Positions 1 to 50,652 of a stretch of DNA of 64,000 bases are shown here, in pieces. Position 1 is the first letter of the stretch, and each line of letters opens with the position of its first letter. The stretch is from positions 177,010 to 241,009 of the forward strand of contig CAMRSV010000001.1 of NCBI GenBank assembly GCA_947053455.1. Reading direction: 5' to 3'. Under the pieces are notes generated by a model. It was not told where the DNA came from, ran no database searches, and saw nothing but the letters and a program-made list of their open reading frames with translations. The DNA comes from an uncultured Alphaproteobacteria bacterium (GTDB lineage Bacteria > Pseudomonadota > Alphaproteobacteria > Rs-D84). The translations under genes were made by a program, and so were the position numbers.

Positions 1-1778
1 CACCCCATTCGTTTTGCGGCGGTAATCAGTTGTTGGTTGATGCCGCAACATGGAAAAGCCTGGAAATAGACGCGCCCATAAACGATGGTGGCGCATGTCT
101 GATTGATGTGTTGGATTTAACACGTACGGCGGCGGGCGGGCGCAAACTGCGTTCTTATTTGCGTATGCTGTCATCCGACCCTGATGAAATTCGCCGCCGT
201 CAAGAGCATATTGGCCACCTGTTGCTGAACCGTGATATTGCGGGCATGGCTTCGGTTACATTGTCGCGTTTGCCCGATGTGGGACGCAGTTTGACAAGAC
301 TATTGACGGGGCGTGGCGCACCGCGCGATTTGCGGCAGGTGGCGCGCTTTGTCACAGAATTGCCGAATGCAAAGATAATGGGTATGCGTTTGGACGACGG
401 CTTTATCGCACGTTTTAGCGAGATGAACACGCACGATGGGCTTGGTGCGGAATTAAATTCCGCCTTGTCCGATGAAATGCCGACATTTTTTCGTGATGGC
501 GGGGTAATTCGCGACGGATTTGACGCATCACTGGATCATATGCGACGCTTGGCTCATGGGGCCAAGGAAACTATTGCCACAATGCAGGCGGAATATGCCG
601 CGGCAACTGGGGTTTCAACCCTTAAAATTAAATATAATAATATCCTGGGGTATTTTATAGAGGTGCCAAGTGCCCGTGCGGACACGTTAATGGCGCCGGA
701 CGCGGGATTTATCCACCGTCAAACAATGGCGAACAATATGCGTTTTACAACGCCGCGCCTGATTGATTTGGACAATGACGTGCGCAGCGCCGCGGAAAGA
801 GCCGCCGGTATAGAATCCGAAATTATCGCCGCCTTTATTGATAAGATACGTGCGTGCGCGGACGATTTGCTGGGGGCGGCGGATTTGCTGGCCGATGTTG
901 ATGTATGGTGCGCATTGGCCGAATGTGCGGCGCAGTATGAATGGGTACGTCCGACAATAACAGATAACAACGAATTTGATGTTATCGGCGGCCGGCATCC
1001 GGTTATTGAATGGGTTCTGCGCCCGCGCGGTGACAACTTTGTTAAAAATGACTGCAATTTAAATGAAATGCCGATTGCATTATTGACCGGGCCGAACATG
1101 GCCGGTAAATCCACATACCTGCGCCAGAATGCGTTGATTGTGGTTTTGATGCATTTGGGGTCTTTTGTACCGGCCGCGCGCGCCACAATTGGAATTTGTG
1201 ACCAATTGTTTAGCCGTGTTGGCGCATCGGACAATTTGGCGGCGGGTCAATCAACGTTTATGGTTGAAATGAGTGAAACCGCCAACATTCTGCGACGTGC
1301 AACGGATAAATCATTTATTATCTTTGATGAAATTGGCCGCGGTACCGCCACATATGACGGAATGGCAATTGCACAGGCGGTGTTGGAATTCTTGAACGAA
1401 ATGCGTCCGCGTACGCTGTTTGCAACCCATTACCATGAATTAACGGCATTGGCCGGTATGGGGCCGGGTAAACTGAATAGCGTTACGTGTCTGACGATTG
1501 ATGTGCGTGAACACAACAATGAAATCATTTTCATGCATAAAATAATACCGGGCGTTGCCAGCCGTTCTTATGGAATCCAGGTTGCAAAAATGGCCGGCAT
1601 GCCGGAGGCTGTTGTTGCGCGCGCACAACATGTCCTTGATTGTTTAGAGGCCGATAGCATATGCGCCCCGGCGCCCGATTTTGGCACGAAAAACCCGGTA
1701 AAAGCCGGCACGCGCACCACAAAAAATCCACATATTGCGGATAATAAACCCACCGCGCAATTGGATTTGTTCGGATAA
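1..1778 (+). CDS. mutS: DNA mismatch repair protein MutS, C-terminal ~580 aa; the 5' end lies upstream of the window
   Basis: The translation contains the MutS ATPase Walker A LLTGPNMAGKSTYLRQ and the conserved FATHYHELT and STFMVEMSE motifs. The ORF runs open to the window edge. Confidence 0.92.
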   Translation, partial: PHSFCGGNQLLVDAATWKSLEIDAPINDGGACLIDVLDLTRTAAGGRKLRSYLRMLSSDPDEIRRRQEHIGHLLLNRDIAGMASVTLSRLPDVGRSLTRLLTGRGAPRDLRQVARFVTELPNAKIMGMRLDDGFIARFSEMNTHDGLGAELNSALSDEMPTFFRDGGVIRDGFDASLDHMRRLAHGAKETIATMQAEYAAATGVSTLKIKYNNILGYFIEVPSARADTLMAPDAGFIHRQTMANNMRFTTPRLIDLDNDVRSAAERAAGIESEIIAAFIDKIRACADDLLGAADLLADVDVWCALAECAAQYEWVRPTITDNNEFDVIGGRHPVIEWVLRPRGDNFVKNDCNLNEMPIALLTGPNMAGKSTYLRQNALIVVLMHLGSFVPAARATIGICDQLFSRVGASDNLAAGQSTFMVEMSETANILRRATDKSFIIFDEIGRGTATYDGMAIAQAVLEFLNEMRPRTLFATHYHELTALAGMGPGKLNSVTCLTIDVREHNNEIIFMHKIIPGVASRSYGIQVAKMAGMPEAVVARAQHVLDCLEADSICAPAPDFGTKNPVKAGTRTTKNPHIADNKPTAQLDLFG

Positions 1779-1788
1779 AGGCAATAAA

Positions 1789-2667
1789 GTGGTGGCGGCA
1801 GGCGTATTCGTTTTGCTTGATAAGCCCGCGGGCATATTCAGTCGCACGGCGGGTGGCCGCGTGGCGCGTCTGATTGGCATTAAAAAATTTGGGCATATCG
1901 GCACACTTGACCCAATGGCGTCGGGTGTGCTGCCAATTGCGATTGGTGACGCCACAAAAATGATTCCCTTTGTAGAAGATACGGCGCCAGATGTCAAAGA
2001 ATACCTGTTTGGGGTTCAGTTTGGATTTGAAACCGATACGTTGGATATAACGGGTCGTGTAGTGCGTCGCAATGATATTATTCCGACCGCGGACGCAGTT
2101 CGCGGTGTATTGGCGGATTTTATCGGTGATTTAAATCAAATTCCGCCCGTATATAGCGCGGTGCATATCGCCGGACGCCGGGCATATGAATTGGCGCGCC
2201 GAGGTGACACGCCCGATATGCCGGCGCGGCGTGTGCGTATTGATGCGCTGGATTTGCTGGGGGTGGATGGCGCGTCGTTTCAATTTCGCATGCGGTGCGC
2301 GCGCGGGACATATGTACGTGCGGTTGCGCGTGATATTGCGGCAAAACTTGGCACAATGGCCACAGTTGACATGATACGTCGGACGATGACAAACGGTTTT
2401 TCGATAAAAAACGCCGTAAAACTTGATTTTCTGGAAAATCTGGTTAATAATGGGGGCGACATCGGGGCATACCTGATGGGAATGGATTTCGGACTGGGGG
2501 ACATTCCGGTCTTGAATCTGGACGACAATGCGGCCGAATTTTATAGAAACGGTGGCTTTGTTGATATGGCGGTGGCGGCCGGCCGGTATCGCGTGTATTC
2601 GGGTAATATATTTATCGGAATTGGCGTGGTTGACGGTGGTGTGTTGCGGCCAAAACGAACAATTTAA
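1789..2667 (+). CDS. truB: tRNA pseudouridine(55) synthase TruB
   Basis: The GHIGTLDPMASGVLPIAIGDATK catalytic-Asp motif is present. The most likely start is GTG at 1789, which has an AAGG ribosome-binding site and avoids overlap with mutS. The ORF track starts it at 1735. Confidence 0.88.
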   Translation: MVAAGVFVLLDKPAGIFSRTAGGRVARLIGIKKFGHIGTLDPMASGVLPIAIGDATKMIPFVEDTAPDVKEYLFGVQFGFETDTLDITGRVVRRNDIIPTADAVRGVLADFIGDLNQIPPVYSAVHIAGRRAYELARRGDTPDMPARRVRIDALDLLGVDGASFQFRMRCARGTYVRAVARDIAAKLGTMATVDMIRRTMTNGFSIKNAVKLDFLENLVNNGGDIGAYLMGMDFGLGDIPVLNLDDNAAEFYRNGGFVDMAVAAGRYRVYSGNIFIGIGVVDGGVLRPKRTI

Positions 2668-7017: not shown

Positions 7018-8005
7018 AGTTTAATTCTGAAATCAATCCTTCTAAACGTTCAACTGTTTCCGTATCATTTAGTGCGGTTGCAATTGTTCGTGCGGATTCC
7101 AAATCACTACGGGCGGCGGCGATGTTACCCAATTGCAGGTTCAATGCCGCAGATTTTTCAAAATAGCCCATTGCGCGTGCGGATTGCGCCTCACGTGCGT
7201 CCATTGTTGCAGTGCCCTGGATTTGTTCGGAAATAACGCGTACGGCTGATTCATAGTCACTGATTGCGGCCGCATAGTTACCAAGGGCGGTGTATGCCTC
7301 GGCACGTTCTGCATAAACCGACGGGTTAACAACGCCGTCTGGTCGTGCCAACGAATTTGTATAATCGGCAACCGCGCCATCCCAGTTCTTTAGCCACAGG
7401 TTTAATTGACCACGTTTTGCATACAGGTCGCGCAGTTGCAGTATGCTGTCCGGGTTTGATGCGACCGATGCCAGTGCGTTGTTTATATCGTTCAATGCAG
7501 CGTTATAGTCTTCTAATCTGGTGTTTAGTAACGCACGATCATAATATGCAACGCCATTGGTTGCATCGTTTTCAATCGCTGTGTTAAAGTCGTTTAACGC
7601 CGCACGGTAATTGCCCGATTGCATGTATATTTCACCACGCAGTATATATGCGTCGTTTGTTGCATTATTTGCCTCAATCGCGGTGGTAAGTTCCGCAATC
7701 GCGCCATCCAAATCCCCGTTTAGCATTTTCGATTTGCCAGAATTATAATAGTCGTTGCCCTGCATCAGGGTTTCTTCTGCAACGGGTGCATTTGTTTTTG
7801 TTAAAACGCCATGGCTGCGTCCCAGAATATAGAACGTTGCCGCGATAAAGAACAAAATTATAAACCAATATATATAAATCGACAGCGACCATGGGTTAAA
7901 GCATGGTTTGGCGGATTTGCATGGTGCCACGACCGGTTTTGCAGCCTGCGTCTTGGGGGCGCCACGTTTTGCCTTTGAATTTTTGGCTGTGGTATTTTTT
8001 TTCAT
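7016..8005 (-). CDS. Membrane-anchored tetratricopeptide-repeat protein
   Basis: It has a Lys-rich N-terminus, one TM helix and multiple TPR units (AYYDRALLNTRLEDYNAALNDINNAL and similar). Confidence 0.65.
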   Translation of the reverse strand: MKKNTTAKNSKAKRGAPKTQAAKPVVAPCKSAKPCFNPWSLSIYIYWFIILFFIAATFYILGRSHGVLTKTNAPVAEETLMQGNDYYNSGKSKMLNGDLDGAIAELTTAIEANNATNDAYILRGEIYMQSGNYRAALNDFNTAIENDATNGVAYYDRALLNTRLEDYNAALNDINNALASVASNPDSILQLRDLYAKRGQLNLWLKNWDGAVADYTNSLARPDGVVNPSVYAERAEAYTALGNYAAAISDYESAVRVISEQIQGTATMDAREAQSARAMGYFEKSAALNLQLGNIAAARSDLESARTIATALNDTETVERLEGLISELN

Positions 8006-35683: not shown

Positions 35684-35983
35684 ATGGATATGGAAACACT
35701 GATGGCCCAGGCAGCCGAGTTGCAAAACAAAGTCGCAAATGCCCAAGAAGAATTGGCAAAAACCACGGTAAAGGGTATAGCGAACGCCGGCGCATGCATT
35801 GTTGAAATGACGGGTAAATATGACCTGGTGAACATTACACTGCGCGAAGATGCATTGTCGGGCGGTGCGGCGGCGGTATCTGAAATAGTAGCCGATGCAT
35901 TCCGCGATGCAAAGGCCAAGGCCGACGCGGTTATCGACCGCGTAATGGGCGATGCCACGGCCGGAATGCCGATGCCAATGTAA
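35684..35983 (+). CDS. ybaB: Nucleoid-associated protein YbaB/EbfC
   Basis: The 99-aa product matches the YbaB family (AGACIVEMTGKYDLVNITLRED, AFRDAKAKADAV, C-terminal GMPMPM). Confidence 0.85.
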   Translation: MDMETLMAQAAELQNKVANAQEELAKTTVKGIANAGACIVEMTGKYDLVNITLREDALSGGAAAVSEIVADAFRDAKAKADAVIDRVMGDATAGMPMPM

Positions 35984-36068
35984 CAAATTGATAAAATGTA
36001 ACCGCTTAAGAGCGGTTACGCGTATCCATATTTTATATAGAGCAAAAAATATACAGGGCATAAGAATC

Positions 36069-37904
36069 ATGTGGTTATCAAAACGAATCAAGCACGATAT
36101 AGATTCCAGCAAGATTATATCACTTGATGTGTTTGACACATTGTTGTCGCGTCGTTTCATGCATCCATATGATGTATTCGGCTTTATTGAACAAGTATGT
36201 CAATGTCCCGGATTCAAGGATGCGCGTATTGTGGCAGAATATAATGCCCGGCAAAAATATAAAAAAGATGTCAATCTGGATGAGATTTATAATGTAATAT
36301 CGGTACAATATGCGCATTTAAAATCTTTTGAATTGGCAACCGAAATGAACTGTATGTATGCAAATCCAATCGGATATGAAATATTGCAATACGCCAAGAA
36401 AGCGGGAAAAGATGTAATTTGTACATCGGATACTTATTTTTCAAAAGATTTTATAATCGGTGCCCTGGCAAAGAACGGAATCATTAACCTGCCGGTAAAC
36501 ACTGATAATATTTTTGTTAGCAACGAACATAACGCCAGAAAATCCGACGGTTTGTTATTTGACTGCGTCATCAACACAACCGGCGTTTTGCCGAGAGATA
36601 TTGTCCATTTTGGCGACAGTCAACACTCGGACTATGTCATGCCACGCAAACGCGGAATGCGCGCCCACAAAATCCCATATGTAATCAAAGAGTTTTCCGC
36701 AGCCACAGAAAACAAAAAATTTGTTAACCTATATGCGGAATTAAACAATAATCCGTTGACAAGTTTATTTGTGGGAATGTATGCCAAACAATGGTGGTGT
36801 TCCAAGCACACAGGCCGGAAATTAGATTTTTGGTATTCTGTGGGTTATGCCATTATTGCCCCGTTTATTTACGGGTATACACAGTTTATCCGGCAAAATC
36901 TGCCGACCGAAACACCATGTGATTTATTGTTTGTTGCCCGTGATGGATTTTTGCTAAAAAAATGTTTTGACGCATTTAATTCAAACTGTGACATTAATAC
37001 ACATTATGTTTATGCCCCCAGACTGGTAAAAATACTGGGCGATTTAGATTACAGCAATAAATCGGAATACCTAGATATAATAATAAACTATTATTCAAAC
37101 ATAAATGGCACATTTAAGCGCGCGTTTGAAAACAAGACAATCGATTTTCGGGAAAAACAACAATTATTCACAGATAAACAAAACCTTATTGCGCCCCAGG
37201 CCAGGGAACTAAAATCACGATATATAGAGTATGCAAAGACAATAAAATTACATTCCGACAATGTTATGATGGTTGATTTGGCAAGCAGCGTCATGTCTTC
37301 GCAGCGAATACTTAACGATGTGTTGCCCCAACCGATAAAATATGGTTTTTATTTGGGTACAAATGGTGATTTGCCATACCGGGCGTATATGGACAGACAT
37401 GAAAATCAAACTCTTGATATGGGGCCTATTTATGAATTACTGGTATCTTCGCCCGAATTCCCAATCAAAGATTTTTCGGACAAACGGCCTGTATATAACG
37501 AAGACAATCTTTTAGAAAAACATGATAAACAGTTGTTCATCAAATCAATGGACGGTGTTTTGGATTATATCCAGGATTTAAAAAACAGCGGACTTTGCGG
37601 CCAATTTCATACATTACCCATGAAAGTTTTTGCAAAGTATCAGAACAATTTTTGGCGTTTGTTGTCACGTGTTGATTTGAAACAGTTGCAACAGGCAAAC
37701 TGGGCTTATGACGCCCTAAACAACAATCATGCAAACATGTACCAGTATTATCGTGCCACCGTTGCACGAAAATCCGAGGGCGCATTCAAAAAATCACTTT
37801 ATAGGTTTCGCGGTTCTTTTTTGAAATTTATTATAAATCTTGTTCCGGTCAAAAGGTGGCGGCATGCCATGCGGCGGCATTGTTTTAGTAATCGCAATGT
37901 CTGA
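36069..37904 (+). CDS. Large HAD-superfamily hydrolase fusion protein (N-terminal HAD phosphatase-like domain plus about 400-aa unknown domain)
   Basis: HAD motif I reads ISLDVFDTLL (DxDxT). Candidate motifs II (ICTSDT) and IV (HFGDSQHSD) are present. The C-terminal two thirds match no recognised family. Confidence 0.55.
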   Translation: MWLSKRIKHDIDSSKIISLDVFDTLLSRRFMHPYDVFGFIEQVCQCPGFKDARIVAEYNARQKYKKDVNLDEIYNVISVQYAHLKSFELATEMNCMYANPIGYEILQYAKKAGKDVICTSDTYFSKDFIIGALAKNGIINLPVNTDNIFVSNEHNARKSDGLLFDCVINTTGVLPRDIVHFGDSQHSDYVMPRKRGMRAHKIPYVIKEFSAATENKKFVNLYAELNNNPLTSLFVGMYAKQWWCSKHTGRKLDFWYSVGYAIIAPFIYGYTQFIRQNLPTETPCDLLFVARDGFLLKKCFDAFNSNCDINTHYVYAPRLVKILGDLDYSNKSEYLDIIINYYSNINGTFKRAFENKTIDFREKQQLFTDKQNLIAPQARELKSRYIEYAKTIKLHSDNVMMVDLASSVMSSQRILNDVLPQPIKYGFYLGTNGDLPYRAYMDRHENQTLDMGPIYELLVSSPEFPIKDFSDKRPVYNEDNLLEKHDKQLFIKSMDGVLDYIQDLKNSGLCGQFHTLPMKVFAKYQNNFWRLLSRVDLKQLQQANWAYDALNNNHANMYQYYRATVARKSEGAFKKSLYRFRGSFLKFIINLVPVKRWRHAMRRHCFSNRNV

Positions 37905-38900: not shown

Positions 38901-38974
38901 TGGTGCCCTAAGCAAGAATCGGACTTGCGACTCGTCCTTACCAAGGACGTGTTTTACCACTAGACTATTAGGGC
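38901..38974 (-). tRNA. tRNA-Thr (anticodon GGT)
   Basis: The cloverleaf is GCCCTAA...CGTCC-TTGGTAA-GGACG...GCAAG-TCCGATT-CTTGC...TTAGGGC-A-CCA. There is one C·A mismatch in the D stem. Confidence 0.7.
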
Positions 38975-39726: not shown

Positions 39727-40374
39727 TCAAATCTTAATTAATCCTGTTTGGCATGCTTTCCACAAAACAACATCAATATATCCGCGGGGCAATTTTGTTT
39801 GCGCACATAGGGCTACGAACATATCGTCGCATGCACGTTTTACCGCCGCGTCCAGTTTTCCGTTGTCTATTTTACCGCGCAGCGTATCGTCACCCGCAAA
39901 GCACACACCAAGCCTTTGAATCCATATGTCGTATTTTACAACATCTTCACCCAGATTTCGCGCCAAATGGTTTGCGGTAATCTTTCCGATATGCGGCAGT
40001 TTTGAGAGATATTCGACGCGCGCATCCGTATCCGTTAATTCATAATATGCGTGACACAAATCCGCACGTGACGCCCAAATTTTACAAATTGCATTTATTT
40101 TGTTTTTATTGTTAAACAGTGCAATCAATTGGTCGAAATTTGCGCCATGCATATTAATGCATTCCATTATTTTGGCATGAATTTTCTTGGCCGTTTTCTG
40201 GGAAAATCCCCCGGCCAAAATAACGTATGAGCAGGCATTGGCGAATTCGTCGGGGGTGCACACGTGGTGCGCCGACAGATTTTGCTTAATTTCATCAAAC
40301 GTCTGTGCATCGGAATCCATTCCCATTTCGCGAATGCGCGTATCCAGCCCATTAAACCAATCCGCCGTGAACAT
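39727..40374 (-). CDS. HhH-GPD superfamily DNA glycosylase-like protein (MagIII/AlkA-like)
   Basis: An HhH motif and a putative catalytic Asp (KLPHIGKITANHLARNLGEDVVKYDIWIQRL) align with the Nth pattern LPGIGxKTAN...D(T/I)H. The gene is adjacent to ung. Confidence 0.5.
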   Translation of the reverse strand: MFTADWFNGLDTRIREMGMDSDAQTFDEIKQNLSAHHVCTPDEFANACSYVILAGGFSQKTAKKIHAKIMECINMHGANFDQLIALFNNKNKINAICKIWASRADLCHAYYELTDTDARVEYLSKLPHIGKITANHLARNLGEDVVKYDIWIQRLGVCFAGDDTLRGKIDNGKLDAAVKRACDDMFVALCAQTKLPRGYIDVVLWKACQTGLIKI

Positions 40375-40383
40375 TTATATCCC

Positions 40384-42822
<2,439 letters not shown>

Positions 42823-42858
42823 TTATGGTATAATTATCAAGAAAAAAGGATAAAAAAC

Positions 42859-43167
42859 ATGGCAAATTCACAAGCGCCAAAATATACCAAGGCGGACTTT
42901 CTAAATTACAAGAAATTGGCCGAAAAACTGGGCGCCGATCCGATAGAAGTGTATGAAGTGATGCGTCGCCACTGGAAGGCGAGTACGCCAATAAAATATA
43001 CCGTCAACGGTCGCAATGCAGTTAGTCAAATGATTGTTATGAATACCAACCGTAAATCGGTTGGACGCACATCTAGAACATCGACAACAAATAAAAATGC
43101 ACTGCTTTTGCATCCAATGGGATTTGGTGTATTTGTAGAGATGCTTAAATCAACAAAAAGGAAATAA
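42859..43167 (+). CDS. Hypothetical basic protein, paralog A (possible Rha/ORF6N-like DNA-binding motif)
   Basis: The N-terminal KADFLNYKKLAEKLGADPIEVYEVMRRH resembles the LAxxLG...V helix-turn-helix signature of the phage Rha/ORF6N/KilA-N regulators. It is a tandem paralog of the next gene. Confidence 0.45.
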   Translation: MANSQAPKYTKADFLNYKKLAEKLGADPIEVYEVMRRHWKASTPIKYTVNGRNAVSQMIVMNTNRKSVGRTSRTSTTNKNALLLHPMGFGVFVEMLKSTKRK

Positions 43168-43168
43168 C

Positions 43169-43453
43169 ATGATAGTAGAAGGTGAAAGAAAATTTACAAA
43201 AGCCGACTATTTAAATTATAAAAAGCTGGCGGAAAAACTGGGCGCCGACCCAAAAGAAGTATATCAAACAATGTTGCGACATTACAAAATGCGCACGCCG
43301 ATTGAATATGAATCAAACGGGATTAAGGTAAAAAATTTTATGATTGTAAGGGCAGTGGGTAAATCTACAATATCTCATCGAAATACTATTGTATTACATC
43401 CGTATGCATTCACTAAATTTAAGGAAGTATTCACAAAAGGAAATACAAAATGA
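43169..43453 (+). CDS. Hypothetical basic protein, paralog B
   Basis: It shows clear sequence similarity to 42859-43167 (KADYLNYKKLAEKLGADPKEVYQTMLRHYKMRTPIEY). It starts 2 nt after the paralog A stop. Confidence 0.45.
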   Translation: MIVEGERKFTKADYLNYKKLAEKLGADPKEVYQTMLRHYKMRTPIEYESNGIKVKNFMIVRAVGKSTISHRNTIVLHPYAFTKFKEVFTKGNTK

Positions 43454-44019
43454 AATTTAAACTGCTGTATTTCGGGGATATTTTAATAAATCCTAAAAAA
43501 CGTGCGCAGCACATATCAGATATTCGGATGCAATTTCATCCGCAACTTAAAAAACTGTTGGAACATAGACCTTGGGACAATATGACCCAATACATGTTGC
43601 CGAACGCGACGAAAAGCCCGATTACAACCCGTCATGTTGGCGGAATTGACTGGAACCCGATTATAACGCCGAATTTGAAATTGTTGGCGGAACTGGATAT
43701 TCAAATGATGCATCCGGAAATCATTGGGGTGCCGCATTCAGATATAGATAATCGTCTAAAAACGCTATTTGATGGGCTGCGTGCGCCGCAAAACGAACAT
43801 GAAATTGGTGAAAATACGCCCCGTGACATCGGACCAATTTACACGCTGCTTGATGATGACCACCTGGTAACAAAAACAACGATAAATACCAGCCATCTGT
43901 TATCGTCCGACATATTTGCACAATGTCGTCCCAATTCCCCTGATTCCGTATTTGTGATGATTGACGTAAATGTACGCGTCGCCGAAGGAACGTTGGAAAA
44001 TCTGCCGTTTATGATATAA
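43450..44019 (+). CDS. Hypothetical 189-aa protein, third gene of a compact operon
   Basis: It overlaps the upstream gene by 4 nt (ATGA). No family was recognised. A terminator follows. Confidence 0.45.
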   Translation: MKFKLLYFGDILINPKKRAQHISDIRMQFHPQLKKLLEHRPWDNMTQYMLPNATKSPITTRHVGGIDWNPIITPNLKLLAELDIQMMHPEIIGVPHSDIDNRLKTLFDGLRAPQNEHEIGENTPRDIGPIYTLLDDDHLVTKTTINTSHLLSSDIFAQCRPNSPDSVFVMIDVNVRVAEGTLENLPFMI

Positions 44020-44050
44020 AAACGCCCGTTTGGGCGTTTTTACTTTTTTA
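44018..44050. terminator. Bidirectional terminator between the three-gene operon and macB
   Basis: The hairpin AAAACGCCCGTTTGGGCGTTTT is flanked by A-runs and T-runs. Confidence 0.8.
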
Positions 44051-44057
44051 TACCGGT

Positions 44058-48674: not shown

Positions 48675-48748
48675 GGCCTGGTGGCAGAGTGGTTATGCAG
48701 AGGACTGCAAATCCTTGTATGCCGGTTCGATTCCGACCCAGGCCTCCA
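48675..48748 (+). tRNA. tRNA-Cys (anticodon GCA)
   Basis: The cloverleaf is GGCCTGG...GAGGA-CTGCAAA-TCCTT...GGTTCGATTCC...CCAGGCC-T-CCA. Confidence 0.88.
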
Positions 48749-48780: not shown

Positions 48781-49244
48781 TATTTGTTTCTGTTTTTTCT
48801 AAATTCGTCCAACGATACAACGCGACCTGTGTCTGCGGTTGCCTGTTCATCCAAGGGCAATTCCATATCGTTGTCGGCCGCGGGCGTTGCCGCGCTGCGC
48901 GGATGGAATGACAGCATGAAATCAACAGATGGATCCTTGAATTCAACCAAGGCCGAAAATGGCACGCGAATAAAAAAGGGTCTGCCGTCAAATGTTAATT
49001 GAACACCAAATTCCTTGTCCGACACATTAAGATTATTATAAGAATACTGCAACACGATTGTCATTATGTCCGGATAGCGCATCCGTAAAAAATCCGGCAA
49101 TACCACGCCCGGTGCACGTGTTTTGAACGTTATAAAGAAATGCGTCCCGTCCCCCAATCCGTTAAACTGGGCGTGTGTTAGTGCATCCTTTACGACAGAT
49201 TTTAATGCGTTGTCCAATAATGCCTGGTAATCAATCTTGCTCAT
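48780..49244 (-). CDS. sspB: ClpXP adaptor SspB homologue (alphaproteobacterial SspB-alpha type)
   Basis: Conserved blocks are present (HFFITFKTRAPGVVLPDFLRMRYPDIMTIVLQ ... RVPFSALVEFKDPSVDF). It also has an acidic C-terminal tail with a ClpX-binding-like end. Confidence 0.75.
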   Translation of the reverse strand: MSKIDYQALLDNALKSVVKDALTHAQFNGLGDGTHFFITFKTRAPGVVLPDFLRMRYPDIMTIVLQYSYNNLNVSDKEFGVQLTFDGRPFFIRVPFSALVEFKDPSVDFMLSFHPRSAATPAADNDMELPLDEQATADTGRVVSLDEFRKNRNK

Positions 49245-50334
49245 TTCCGTCCGTTTTATTTTGAATAACTATATTACTTATTTCCCCATCGTTGCAAGCA
49301 ACAAATGCCGCGTCATTTACATCTGAAAATGCGTTCGCGTCCAATCCCGTGGCCCATACCTGGGCGCGTGCCGCAGCAAACGCGCGAAACATACGGTGCC
49401 GTGCGTCCGGATCCAGGTGGGCGGCCGCCTCGTCCAGCAGGATTATCGGTCGCCGCCCCGTTTTTTCATAAACCAATCGTGCATGCGCCATAATCATGTC
49501 TATCAAAACACTTTTCTGCTGACCTGTGCTGGTTAGTGCCGCCGGCAAGTCAAGCTTTTCATTAAAGACGCCAAAATCGGATTTGTGCGAGCCGTCCAAA
49601 ATCATTTTGTCACCCAATAATTCACGCGCCCCGTGCAGGTATTCCAGATATGCGCGTTCTGCGTCCCCAGGTGTCATTCCAGAAATTAGGTTGGATTCAA
49701 TCATTCCCGCAACAGACATAGCCGCGCCGGATAGAAAATAATTAATTTCCCCAGCATATTGAACGCGCGCAGCGGCAACCGCAACCGCAACTGATGCGAT
49801 TTGCATATCCAACGCGTCTGTCCAGCGTGCATCCCGCCCCGATTTTAATGCAAACGCCCGTTCCGACAGCAGTTTTGTAAGACGCGCCACGCGTCCGGCA
49901 TGCGTTGCGTCAAAGCCTGATACTAATCGGTCGAAGAACGCACGACGTTCCCCCGCGCCATCAACGAAAATTCTGTCTTCGCGGGGGGTAATCCAAACCA
50001 TTGGCAATTGCGCGACCAATTGCGACAATGGGGCCGTATCCCCGTCAATTCGTGCGCGTCGGTTTGCGTCGCCCGCGGTGTATGTTATCGAAATTTCCGT
50101 GTCATCGGACAATGTTGCAAATATCGAAAATCCGCCGCAACCGTTAAATCGTGCAATGTCTGTCATGGGGGCGCCACGCATTCCACGGTCACCGGATAAC
50201 ATGGACAACGCCTCTAGCACGGCGGTCTTGCCGGCGCCGTTGGGGCCAGTGATTATAATGTTGCGCCGGCCGGCCGTTTTTATACGGCACATTTCATGAT
50301 TTCTAAAATCGGTCAGCGTCAAAGTTTCAATCAT
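49231..50334 (-). CDS. recF: DNA replication and repair protein RecF
   Basis: The Walker A reads ITGPNGAGKTAVLEAL, the SMC-like signature is present and the Walker B reads ILLDEAAAHLD. The start is at MIETLTL. Confidence 0.9.
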   Translation of the reverse strand: MIETLTLTDFRNHEMCRIKTAGRRNIIITGPNGAGKTAVLEALSMLSGDRGMRGAPMTDIARFNGCGGFSIFATLSDDTEISITYTAGDANRRARIDGDTAPLSQLVAQLPMVWITPREDRIFVDGAGERRAFFDRLVSGFDATHAGRVARLTKLLSERAFALKSGRDARWTDALDMQIASVAVAVAAARVQYAGEINYFLSGAAMSVAGMIESNLISGMTPGDAERAYLEYLHGARELLGDKMILDGSHKSDFGVFNEKLDLPAALTSTGQQKSVLIDMIMAHARLVYEKTGRRPIILLDEAAAHLDPDARHRMFRAFAAARAQVWATGLDANAFSDVNDAAFVACNDGEISNIVIQNKTDGNEQD

Positions 50335-50652
50335 GCCCGGATAATACAATTATATCGGAAAAAATACAAGTCCCCCATGGTGTGATTTTTTTATTCTTTG
50401 CAAAAAATTGCGGCCATGTTATAATCTTGATGTTGGCGGGTGTTTCGCCGACGGGGTGTGAGAACCTCACTTAAGCGTCGTAATTGTAATTGGCGCAGTG
50501 CGCCTTTATTTATGCGATGAAAAGCTCCTGACCACTGGGTCAGGAGGGTCGCTGAATATAAAAATACGCGGCACAATACTTAAGATTGTTCTCAACCTCC
50601 TGACCACTGAATTTCGGTGGTTTTTTGTTAAGCACAAAGAAAGAAGGGGCCT

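Follow-up and report, generated by a model that had tools for sequence, protein, structure and literature searches.

The question raised by the locus described here is why a compact group of three genes (A, B and C) stands beside gyrB, and what its products do. The locus belongs to a stretch of 64,000 nucleotides (hereafter the window), positions 177,010 to 241,009 of contig CAMRSV010000001.1 (assembly GCA_947053455.1), from an uncultured alphaproteobacterium of the Rs-D84 lineage. An earlier note, made from the sequence alone, described a compact three-gene operon between gyrB and a MacAB-TolC operon, a description that the open reading frames (ORFs) and the Pfam matches of the neighbouring genes bear out. 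It took the 189-amino-acid (aa) product of C to be unrecognisable, likened A and B to phage regulators of the Rha, ORF6N and KilA-N type, and thought of a prophage or mobile remnant or of a defence-like module. We arrive at a different reading, which we favour with moderate confidence: C would be a core nuclease of the RusA superfamily, A and B two copies of an exchangeable cassette restricted to this lineage, and all three would form one operon.

Gene C: core status and likeness to RusA

In Candidatus Enterousia and its order Rs-D84, gene C belongs to the vertically inherited core and is under very strong purifying selection. A relative of C is encoded in 520 GTDB species, the best 80 of which all come from this alphaproteobacterial clade; the counts of synteny, small genes and neighbours given below refer to these best 80 species loci. 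In 72 of them gyrB is the immediate neighbour of C (divergent in 67, co-directional in 5), and the adjacency is missing only in the most distant relatives, whose C is 50 to 54% identical to that of the window. The ratio of non-synonymous to synonymous substitution rates (dN/dS) of C is 0.00 to 0.05, even at a dS of about 0.8: between the window and locus L011 (L-numbers are labels of the compared loci, mostly from related genomes) three residues differ at a dS of 0.83. The downstream neighbour varies: most loci have type IV pilus genes there, this window has MacAB-TolC. The gene neighbourhood, which the earlier note had named as a point to check, is thus conserved in synteny as far as C is concerned, and this synteny with gyrB across an order-level clade, together with the very strong purifying selection, speaks against a prophage or mobile remnant, or a defence module, as a description of the whole unit. 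For C, it is also the outcome by which the earlier note would have had its idea refuted.

The closest genomes come from uncultured Alphaproteobacteria of rumen and gut. Several of these bear the name Candidatus Enterousia, a genus of the order Rs-D84, whose genomes measure 0.75 to 1.0 Mb (PMC12306168). In a termite-gut branch (L075, L078, L079, L080 and L084), C follows gyrB on the same strand, so that the adjacency has survived an inversion; an unrelated 246-aa ORF stands between the two genes in L078.

Scanned as a single sequence against Pfam, PADLOC, PHROGs and NCBIfam, C gave nothing significant. A first homologue search returned 260 proteins; among the 120 matches listed, lengths were 187 to 214 aa (nearly all about 189 aa) and identities to C 71 to 99%. 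Among 1.84 billion cluster representatives, a profile search then yielded 1,900 relatives at E<=1e-3, 961 of them at E<=1e-10, and a second profile search brought the family to more than 5,000 proteins, from sources that include a Nostoc plasmid, Gammaproteobacteria and Nitrospinota. All named members are called 'hypothetical', none carries a Pfam domain, and the family has no model in Pfam, NCBIfam or PADLOC. Its distant members stand alone in gene contexts that are unrelated, and no conserved partner gene was found there; a second gene on the Nostoc plasmid, coding for 188 aa, proved unrelated to C. Only 17 IMG/VR loci contain the family. A tblastn search of 50,697 phage records with C gave no match, and plasmid records contained two distant hypothetical proteins (31 to 32% identical), on Nostoc and Nitrosococcus plasmids.

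The likeness to RusA appears at the level of the predicted structure and of the active site. An AlphaFold2 model of C built from 40 diverse homologues (28 to 59% identical to C) had a predicted local distance difference test score (pLDDT) of 91 and a predicted template modelling score (pTM) of 0.86; it replaced a first model made from close homologues only, which had a pLDDT of 57 and gave meaningless Foldseek matches. With the second model, Foldseek placed RusA chains at ranks 1, 2, 3 and 5 in the PDB (E 3e-3 to 1e-2, probability 0.90 to 0.99), the top match being 2h8c_D (E 3e-3, probability 0.99, TM-score 0.55 on RusA length), followed by 2h8c_A, 2h8c_B and 1q8r_B. Among the top 50 matches in BFVD, those with a functional name were RusA-type resolvases, except one herpesvirus tegument protein (best E 6e-4, probability 1.0).

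In the alignment of the 40 sequences, D98, D100, K104, D108 and D137 are among the invariant positions, and N101 and D136 are nearly so. Residues D70, D72, N73, K76, D80, D90 and D91 of RusA, with a numbering verified on the E. coli sequence, correspond in that order to D98, D100, N101, K104, D108, D136 and D137 of C. Asp70, Asp72, Lys76 and Asp91 (E. coli numbering) are those we take to be catalytic in RusA, one PDB entry being titled 'RusA D70N'. Compared by hhalign with a RusA profile of seven phage and E. coli sequences, the C family matched with a probability of 73% (E 3e-5): strand beta2 and the catalytic helix were aligned, and SDIDNRLKTLFDGL was paired with RDLDNLQKAAFDAL, catalytic aspartates and lysine facing their counterparts. 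With the single E. coli RusA sequence, the match shrank to a 19-column motif (probability 7%). Weak matches to Pfam RusA were obtained for 24 of the 40 family members (best E 0.008; the runner-up family was matched by 2 of the 40), and RusA families were among the five PHROG families matched by the C family, each weakly and by one or two members only.

Model, profile and motif all suggest that C, held by the earlier note to match nothing recognisable, is a divergent protein of the RusA superfamily with an intact catalytic constellation. As it stays under the Pfam gathering threshold, we describe it as a remote superfamily relative and do not file it as a member of PF05866.

The small-gene cassette and its exchange

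What lies between gyrB and C is far less stable than the two genes themselves: the cassette shows gains, losses, duplications, fusions and replacement by strongly differing alleles, with gyrB and C nearly unchanged. In related genomes, the gap measures about 40 to 80 bp without an ORF, about 300 to 370 bp with one ORF, or more. The single ORF of the gaps of about 300 to 370 bp encodes 84 to 113 aa and usually ends in an ATGA overlap. An iterative hidden Markov model (HMM) unites 30 of the 32 gap ORFs of at least 80 aa in one family, with E-values of 1e-17 to 1e-42, and when all ORFs of about 1.3 Mb of related DNA were searched with it, members were found in the gyrB-C slot only. Of the 80 species loci, 28 contain the family, and in each of these C is at least 77% identical to that of the window. 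The idea of an insertion between core genes therefore holds for A and B, a discrete exchanged cassette of low G+C content present in part of the species, but not for C, which is itself core.

Exchange is most visible where C hardly differs. In L001 and L002 the C proteins are 100% identical and the small proteins 30% identical; in L036 and L040 the same 100% stands against 41%, and in locus pairs with a 98% identical C, the small proteins are 21 to 38% identical. For L001 versus L002, dS is 0.107 and dN 0 in C, compared with 2.5 and 0.80 in the small gene. In sliding windows, nucleotide identity is 90 to 100% over gyrB and the spacer, falls to 30 to 60% over the small ORF only, and is back at 98 to 100% from the ATG of C. 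Some seven allele classes of the small gene can be told apart, and their distribution is incongruent with relatedness by C. Two cassette copies occur in the window and in L011, the A-like copy being in the opposite position in L011; fused, extended and split forms from other loci are listed in Table 1. Within the species of the window (12 strains), nucleotide divergence is ordinary, at 1.3 to 2.3% for A and B versus 2.3 to 2.5% for C, which argues for allele exchange combined with relaxed or diversifying selection, and not for targeted hypermutation. Hypermutation of the kind produced by diversity-generating retroelements was considered as the source of the diversity, and is ruled out by the same figures.

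In the window, A and B are tandem paralogs with a shared motif, as the earlier note had seen: they are 49% identical over 89 residues (E 5e-29), both contain KAD(F/Y)LNYKKLAEKLGADP, and their duplication leaves a direct repeat in the DNA. The G+C content is 0.36 to 0.40 over A and B versus 0.47 to 0.50 in the flanks. Other metagenome samples yielded 12 independent contigs of the window's species with the same arrangement of 102, 94 and 189 aa, which is therefore no assembly artefact. The small genes have a dN/dS of 0.25 to 0.36 in six independent pairs, from which we conclude that they are real genes under a constraint much weaker than that on C. Their products are uniformly basic, with isoelectric points (pI) of 9.4 to 10.4, whereas C is acidic. 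Across the seven or so classes, the N-terminal half keeps a motif (Y/F)TKxD(F/Y)L..A.K.G....V..AM; the second half is variable and ends in an LHP or LRP element followed by a short amphipathic segment.

Judged by these sequences, A and B would represent a new family of small basic proteins restricted to this lineage. Single-sequence scans of A and B (Pfam, PADLOC, PHROGs, NCBIfam) gave nothing significant, apart from one chance-level PADLOC match for A (Cyclase, E 0.008); B, C and 36 relatives of C had none in PADLOC. A word-indexed search with B returned three database relatives only, and tblastn gave no match for A in 50,697 phage records and none for B in 72,556 plasmid records. For the small proteins no family in Pfam, PHROGs or the PDB was significant; designed repeat proteins among the top matches of their profile were an artefact of summing over repeats. 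The resemblance to Rha, ORF6N and KilA-N could not be recovered: A, B and the 23 relatives matched none of these families, nor Bro-N, at E<=1 in Pfam and PHROGs (PF09669, PF10543, PF04383, PF02498). HTH_3/Xre and LexA_DNA_bind gave no match either, and hhalign comparison with lambda Xis, AlpA and the LexA-type winged-helix protein of phage SfII (SfII_44) gave nothing. Below threshold, the family touched several winged-helix proteins: MarR-family AdcR (E 0.05), a GntR-like family (0.22), S25, WH_Rok and a YfeC-like family. From charge and sequence pattern, we infer that A and B probably bind nucleic acid, with a helix-turn-helix-like N-terminal half and a variable C-terminal half.

Signals and neighbours of the operon

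The genes are tightly coupled, as the earlier note had stated: its ATGA overlap of 4 nt between B and C is confirmed, and the gap between A and B is 1 nt (a c at 43168) where it had given 2. The last codons of B (AAAGGAAAT) hold the ribosome-binding site (RBS) for C. More generally, each small gene provides, in its final codons (AAAGG...), the RBS of the gene that follows, a role that probably explains a recurrent K-G near the C termini of the small proteins. Upstream of the operon, all 29 loci compared share a block catagcaatttatGGTATAATtatcaagaaaaaagg, irrespective of whether the operon begins with a small gene or with C. The block contains both the extended -10 box of the + strand, with an RBS behind it, and the minus-strand box that suits gyrB (Table 1). 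The cassette thus sits exactly between a fixed putative promoter with its RBS and the ATG of C, so that translation of C would be coupled to it.

The putative promoters of A-B-C and of gyrB stand back to back. The longest gyrB ORF opens at 42816 with an ATG that is not conserved in other loci; gene callers give a GyrB of 799 aa, and a conserved RBS precedes Met12. For these reasons the start of gyrB is most likely Met12, at 42783, with the RBS AAAGGAAAAG in front of it, and the true spacer between gyrB and A would then be about 75 bp, containing the two back-to-back extended -10 boxes. At the other end, the strong bidirectional terminator of the earlier note corresponds to a real, G+C-rich hairpin with a T run. 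The tool scored this hairpin on the + strand only; use in both directions is plausible, given the A run on its 5' side.

On one side, gyrB is preceded by a uracil-DNA glycosylase gene, and on the other side lies a MacB/ABC/HlyD/OEP operon whose macB is convergent to C (all by Pfam). An Rfam scan of the locus found nothing.

Some features further away are listed with the others in Table 1. The RecF-like gene (SMC_N, E 1e-17) is about 5 kb from gyrB, and since the A-B-C operon, the MacAB-TolC operon and a tRNA-Cys gene intervene, the usual linkage of recF and gyrB is broken. A 215-aa protein without Pfam match is encoded between gyrB and the uracil-DNA glycosylase gene and is kept at the same position in related loci (214 to 221 aa in L001 to L005); in several relatives an additional gene of 94 to 108 aa lies between it and gyrB. 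A 650-aa ORF, also without Pfam match, occupies a stretch of low G+C content (0.37 to 0.40), which may be another acquired or fast-evolving region.

Table 1. Coordinates of features at the locus and in compared loci (window positions unless a locus is named)
Feature	Position	Strand	Remarks
Gene A	42859-43167	+	102 aa, basic (pI 10.4); first tandem cassette copy
Gene B	43169-43453	+	94 aa, basic (pI 9.9); paralog of A; stop overlaps ATG of C
Gene C	43450-44019	+	189 aa; predicted divergent RusA-superfamily nuclease-like protein; core gene of the clade
Direct repeat from A/B tandem duplication	42879-42999 and 43189-43309 (span 42879-43309)	+	72% identical, 310-nt spacing
Putative extended -10 promoter of A-B-C (TGgTATAAT)	42826-42834	+	predicted promoter function
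RBS AAAAGGA	about 42845-42851	+	3' of putative A-B-C promoter
Putative extended -10 for gyrB (TGcTATGTT)	42812-42820	-	promoter scan; predicted function
-35-like TTGATA	42840-42835	-	suits gyrB
Terminator-like hairpin and T run	44017-44052 (hairpin 44017-44042)	+	11-bp stem, 5 G-C pairs; shared with convergent macB
650-aa ORF	35952-37904	+	
Nearest tRNA genes	38901-38974 and 48675-48748		
215-aa protein gene	39727-40374	-	
RecF-like gene	49231-50349	-	
L018, fused cassette	7390-7998		two cassette copies fused in one 202-aa ORF
L056, extended cassette	7577-7999		140-aa form, Ala/Lys-rich C-terminal extension
L054, split cassette	7620-8004		copy split over two frames; apparent frameshift, pseudogene or sequencing error
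L052, RuvC and RuvA homologues	538-921 and 1695-2081		44.5% and 37% identical to E. coli proteins; about 6-7 kb from gyrB-C

Proposed function, alternatives and known systems

The question arises as to how a core nuclease-like gene and an exchangeable cassette could work together. In the reading that we favour, A, B and C would be read as one operon from the conserved extended -10 promoter, divergently from gyrB. C would be a Mg2+-dependent, structure-specific DNA nuclease with a D-x-D-N-x-x-K...DD metal-binding site, acting on branched DNA in recombination or replication-fork repair, alongside RuvABC and not in its place. A and B would be tandem duplicates of an optional cassette, translated just ahead of C, and our best guess is that the small protein serves as an accessory or regulatory partner, either of the C nuclease or of the promoter region shared by gyrB and C. 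A modulator of C is plausible, since expression of the RusA-like resolvase G44P of phage SPP1 is toxic in B. subtilis (PMC3485210).

Several points weigh against this reading. C has no Pfam match even at E<=1, its relatives stay under the Pfam RusA gathering score, HMMER profiles of the family did not find the RusA chains among PDB sequences, and the TM-scores between C and RusA are moderate (0.46 to 0.55 on RusA length). C is moreover 60% longer than RusA, the roughly 70 extra residues being placed as inserts, and it is possible that its role is not that of a resolvase, or is not even catalytic. In the case of A and B, the winged-helix-type matches that back DNA binding are all below threshold. 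A tight and specific interaction of A and B with C is called into question by the pairing of identical C proteins with unrelated small alleles, and by the lack of the cassette in two thirds of the species. Finally, nothing yet accounts for the extent of the diversity among small alleles.

Each of the four other readings that we considered is less likely than the one above. A toxin-antitoxin (TA) or defence pair, with C as the nuclease effector, the small protein as antitoxin, sensor or immunity factor, and the diversity as the outcome of an arms race with phages, would account for a small upstream gene that overlaps a nuclease gene by 4 nt, evolves fast and is polymorphic in both presence and allele; the toxicity of G44P in B. 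subtilis (PMC3485210) points the same way. However, 52 of the 80 species loci have C but no small gene, and the wider C family is solitary in varied contexts; C is under extreme purifying selection and syntenic with gyrB; identical C proteins are paired with different small-gene classes, and hence do not co-evolve with them; a basic small protein and an acidic C are the reverse of most type II pairs; and the search of PADLOC with A, B, C and 36 C relatives left nothing beyond the chance-level match of A. We therefore think such a pair unlikely. Another possibility is that C replaces a RuvC lost in reduced genomes, as the sole Holliday-junction resolvase. The predicted RusA fold and active site, the genome size of 0.75 to 1.0 Mb, the strong purifying selection and the DNA-metabolism genes around C (uracil-DNA glycosylase, gyrB, and recF nearby) are all compatible with this proposal, but in L052, from a metagenome-assembled genome of the clade in which gyrB and C are syntenic as here, genes for RuvC and RuvA lie in the same 16 kb, so that C is not simply a RuvC replacement. 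The wider family also occurs in Nostoc, Nitrosococcus, Gammaproteobacteria and Nitrospinota, which normally have RuvC, and we consider the replacement quite unlikely.

The prophage or mobile-element remnant suspected by the earlier note, in which a phage-derived RusA gene and small regulators of the Rha, ORF6N or KilA-N type were left behind between core genes, could draw on the typical occurrence of RusA on lambdoid phages, on the G+C dip over A and B, on the patchy distribution of the small genes, and on phage SfII, whose rusA shares 4 nt with a small winged-helix gene, an analogous layout. Against it, no tRNA gene flanks the locus (Table 1), no inverted repeats were found there, and sizeable direct repeats are confined to the A/B duplication inside the locus, which is not of the att type. 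None of the ten neighbouring genes scanned encodes an integrase. The phage records lacked matches to A and C and the plasmid records lacked matches to B, the only plasmid matches to C being the two distant hypothetical proteins, and the C family is found in 17 IMG/VR loci versus 520 GTDB species. No Rha, ORF6N, KilA-N or Bro match was found, nor homology to the SfII small protein, and C stands next to gyrB across the order with a dN/dS of at most 0.05. For C, this reading is already largely refuted, and overall we judge it highly unlikely. The last of the four would make A and B non-functional, either chance ORFs or a translated leader of indifferent sequence. Their lack of a database family, the three homologues found by word-indexed search and their very high divergence would be expected in that case; the dN/dS of 0.25 to 0.36 in six independent pairs, the conservation of length (84 to 113 aa), pI and N-terminal motif across some seven classes, the HMM E-values (1e-17 to 1e-42) and the stability of both genes in 12 strains of the same species make it scarcely credible.

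Hitherto RusA has been known chiefly as a small resolvase encoded by phages and cryptic prophages. Against this background, the C family would be a large unannotated group of cellular proteins (more than 5,000, with 1,900 clusters at 50% identity) that share the RusA fold and active site. The strong constraint on C and its tie to gyrB, in genomes of some 0.9 Mb, suggest that it has a housekeeping role in DNA metabolism not recognised so far, and for annotation, a testable function could take the place of 'hypothetical protein'. The evolution of the locus is unusual as well, a small cassette being swapped among some seven very different alleles between two nearly identical flanks. Such patterns are usually tied to immunity or conflict loci. 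A bolder proposal, which we regard as rather doubtful, is that the small proteins are interchangeable specificity or immunity-like subunits under balancing selection that direct or gate C; nuclease and subunits together would then make up a hitherto undescribed system of two components that discriminates or surveys DNA and is linked to the gyrB promoter, in gut symbionts whose genomes are reduced. If this were true, the solitary C family of more than 5,000 members would be a new cellular class of the RusA fold, with a role distinct from Holliday-junction resolution. Nothing categorically new is claimed here: C would add a new branch, as yet unannotated, to a known superfamily, and A and B would make up a small family that is new and whose cassette dynamics are unusual.

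How does the operon compare with known systems? Like a type II TA module, it has a small upstream gene that overlaps the next one by 4 nt, evolves faster than it, and is shuffled between loci; it differs in that the downstream gene is highly conserved and usually alone, in that the partners do not co-evolve, and in the reversed charge polarity. A second analogy is offered by the controller (C) proteins of restriction-modification (R-M) systems and by the pair SfII_44/SfII_45, in which, as here, the gene of a small putative DNA-binding protein directly precedes that of a nuclease, shares a few bases with it and belongs to the same transcript. The likeness is one of layout only, as neither R-M controller proteins nor SfII_44 have sequence homology to A and B; in addition, the A-B-C operon is without a methyltransferase gene, and the optional, hypervariable state of the cassette is atypical of controller proteins. 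In Shigella phage SfII (L114/L119, 32722-33434) and some Stx phages, the small LexA-type winged-helix gene overlaps a canonical rusA by 4 nt.

The closest known counterpart of C is RusA itself (PF05866; RusA of the E. coli prophage DLP12, PDB 1Q8R and 2H8C), its best structural match in both the PDB and BFVD. The predicted secondary-structure elements come in the same order, and D-x-D-N-x-x-K-x-x-x-D...DD is aligned residue for residue. C is, in contrast, a protein of 189 aa compared with about 120 aa, with predicted inserts that comprise a helix and beta-hairpin at about 40-76, a loop at 111-129, a helix at 153-159 and a C-terminal helix; and where RusA is a phage or prophage gene, C is a chromosomal, solitary and vertically inherited core gene.

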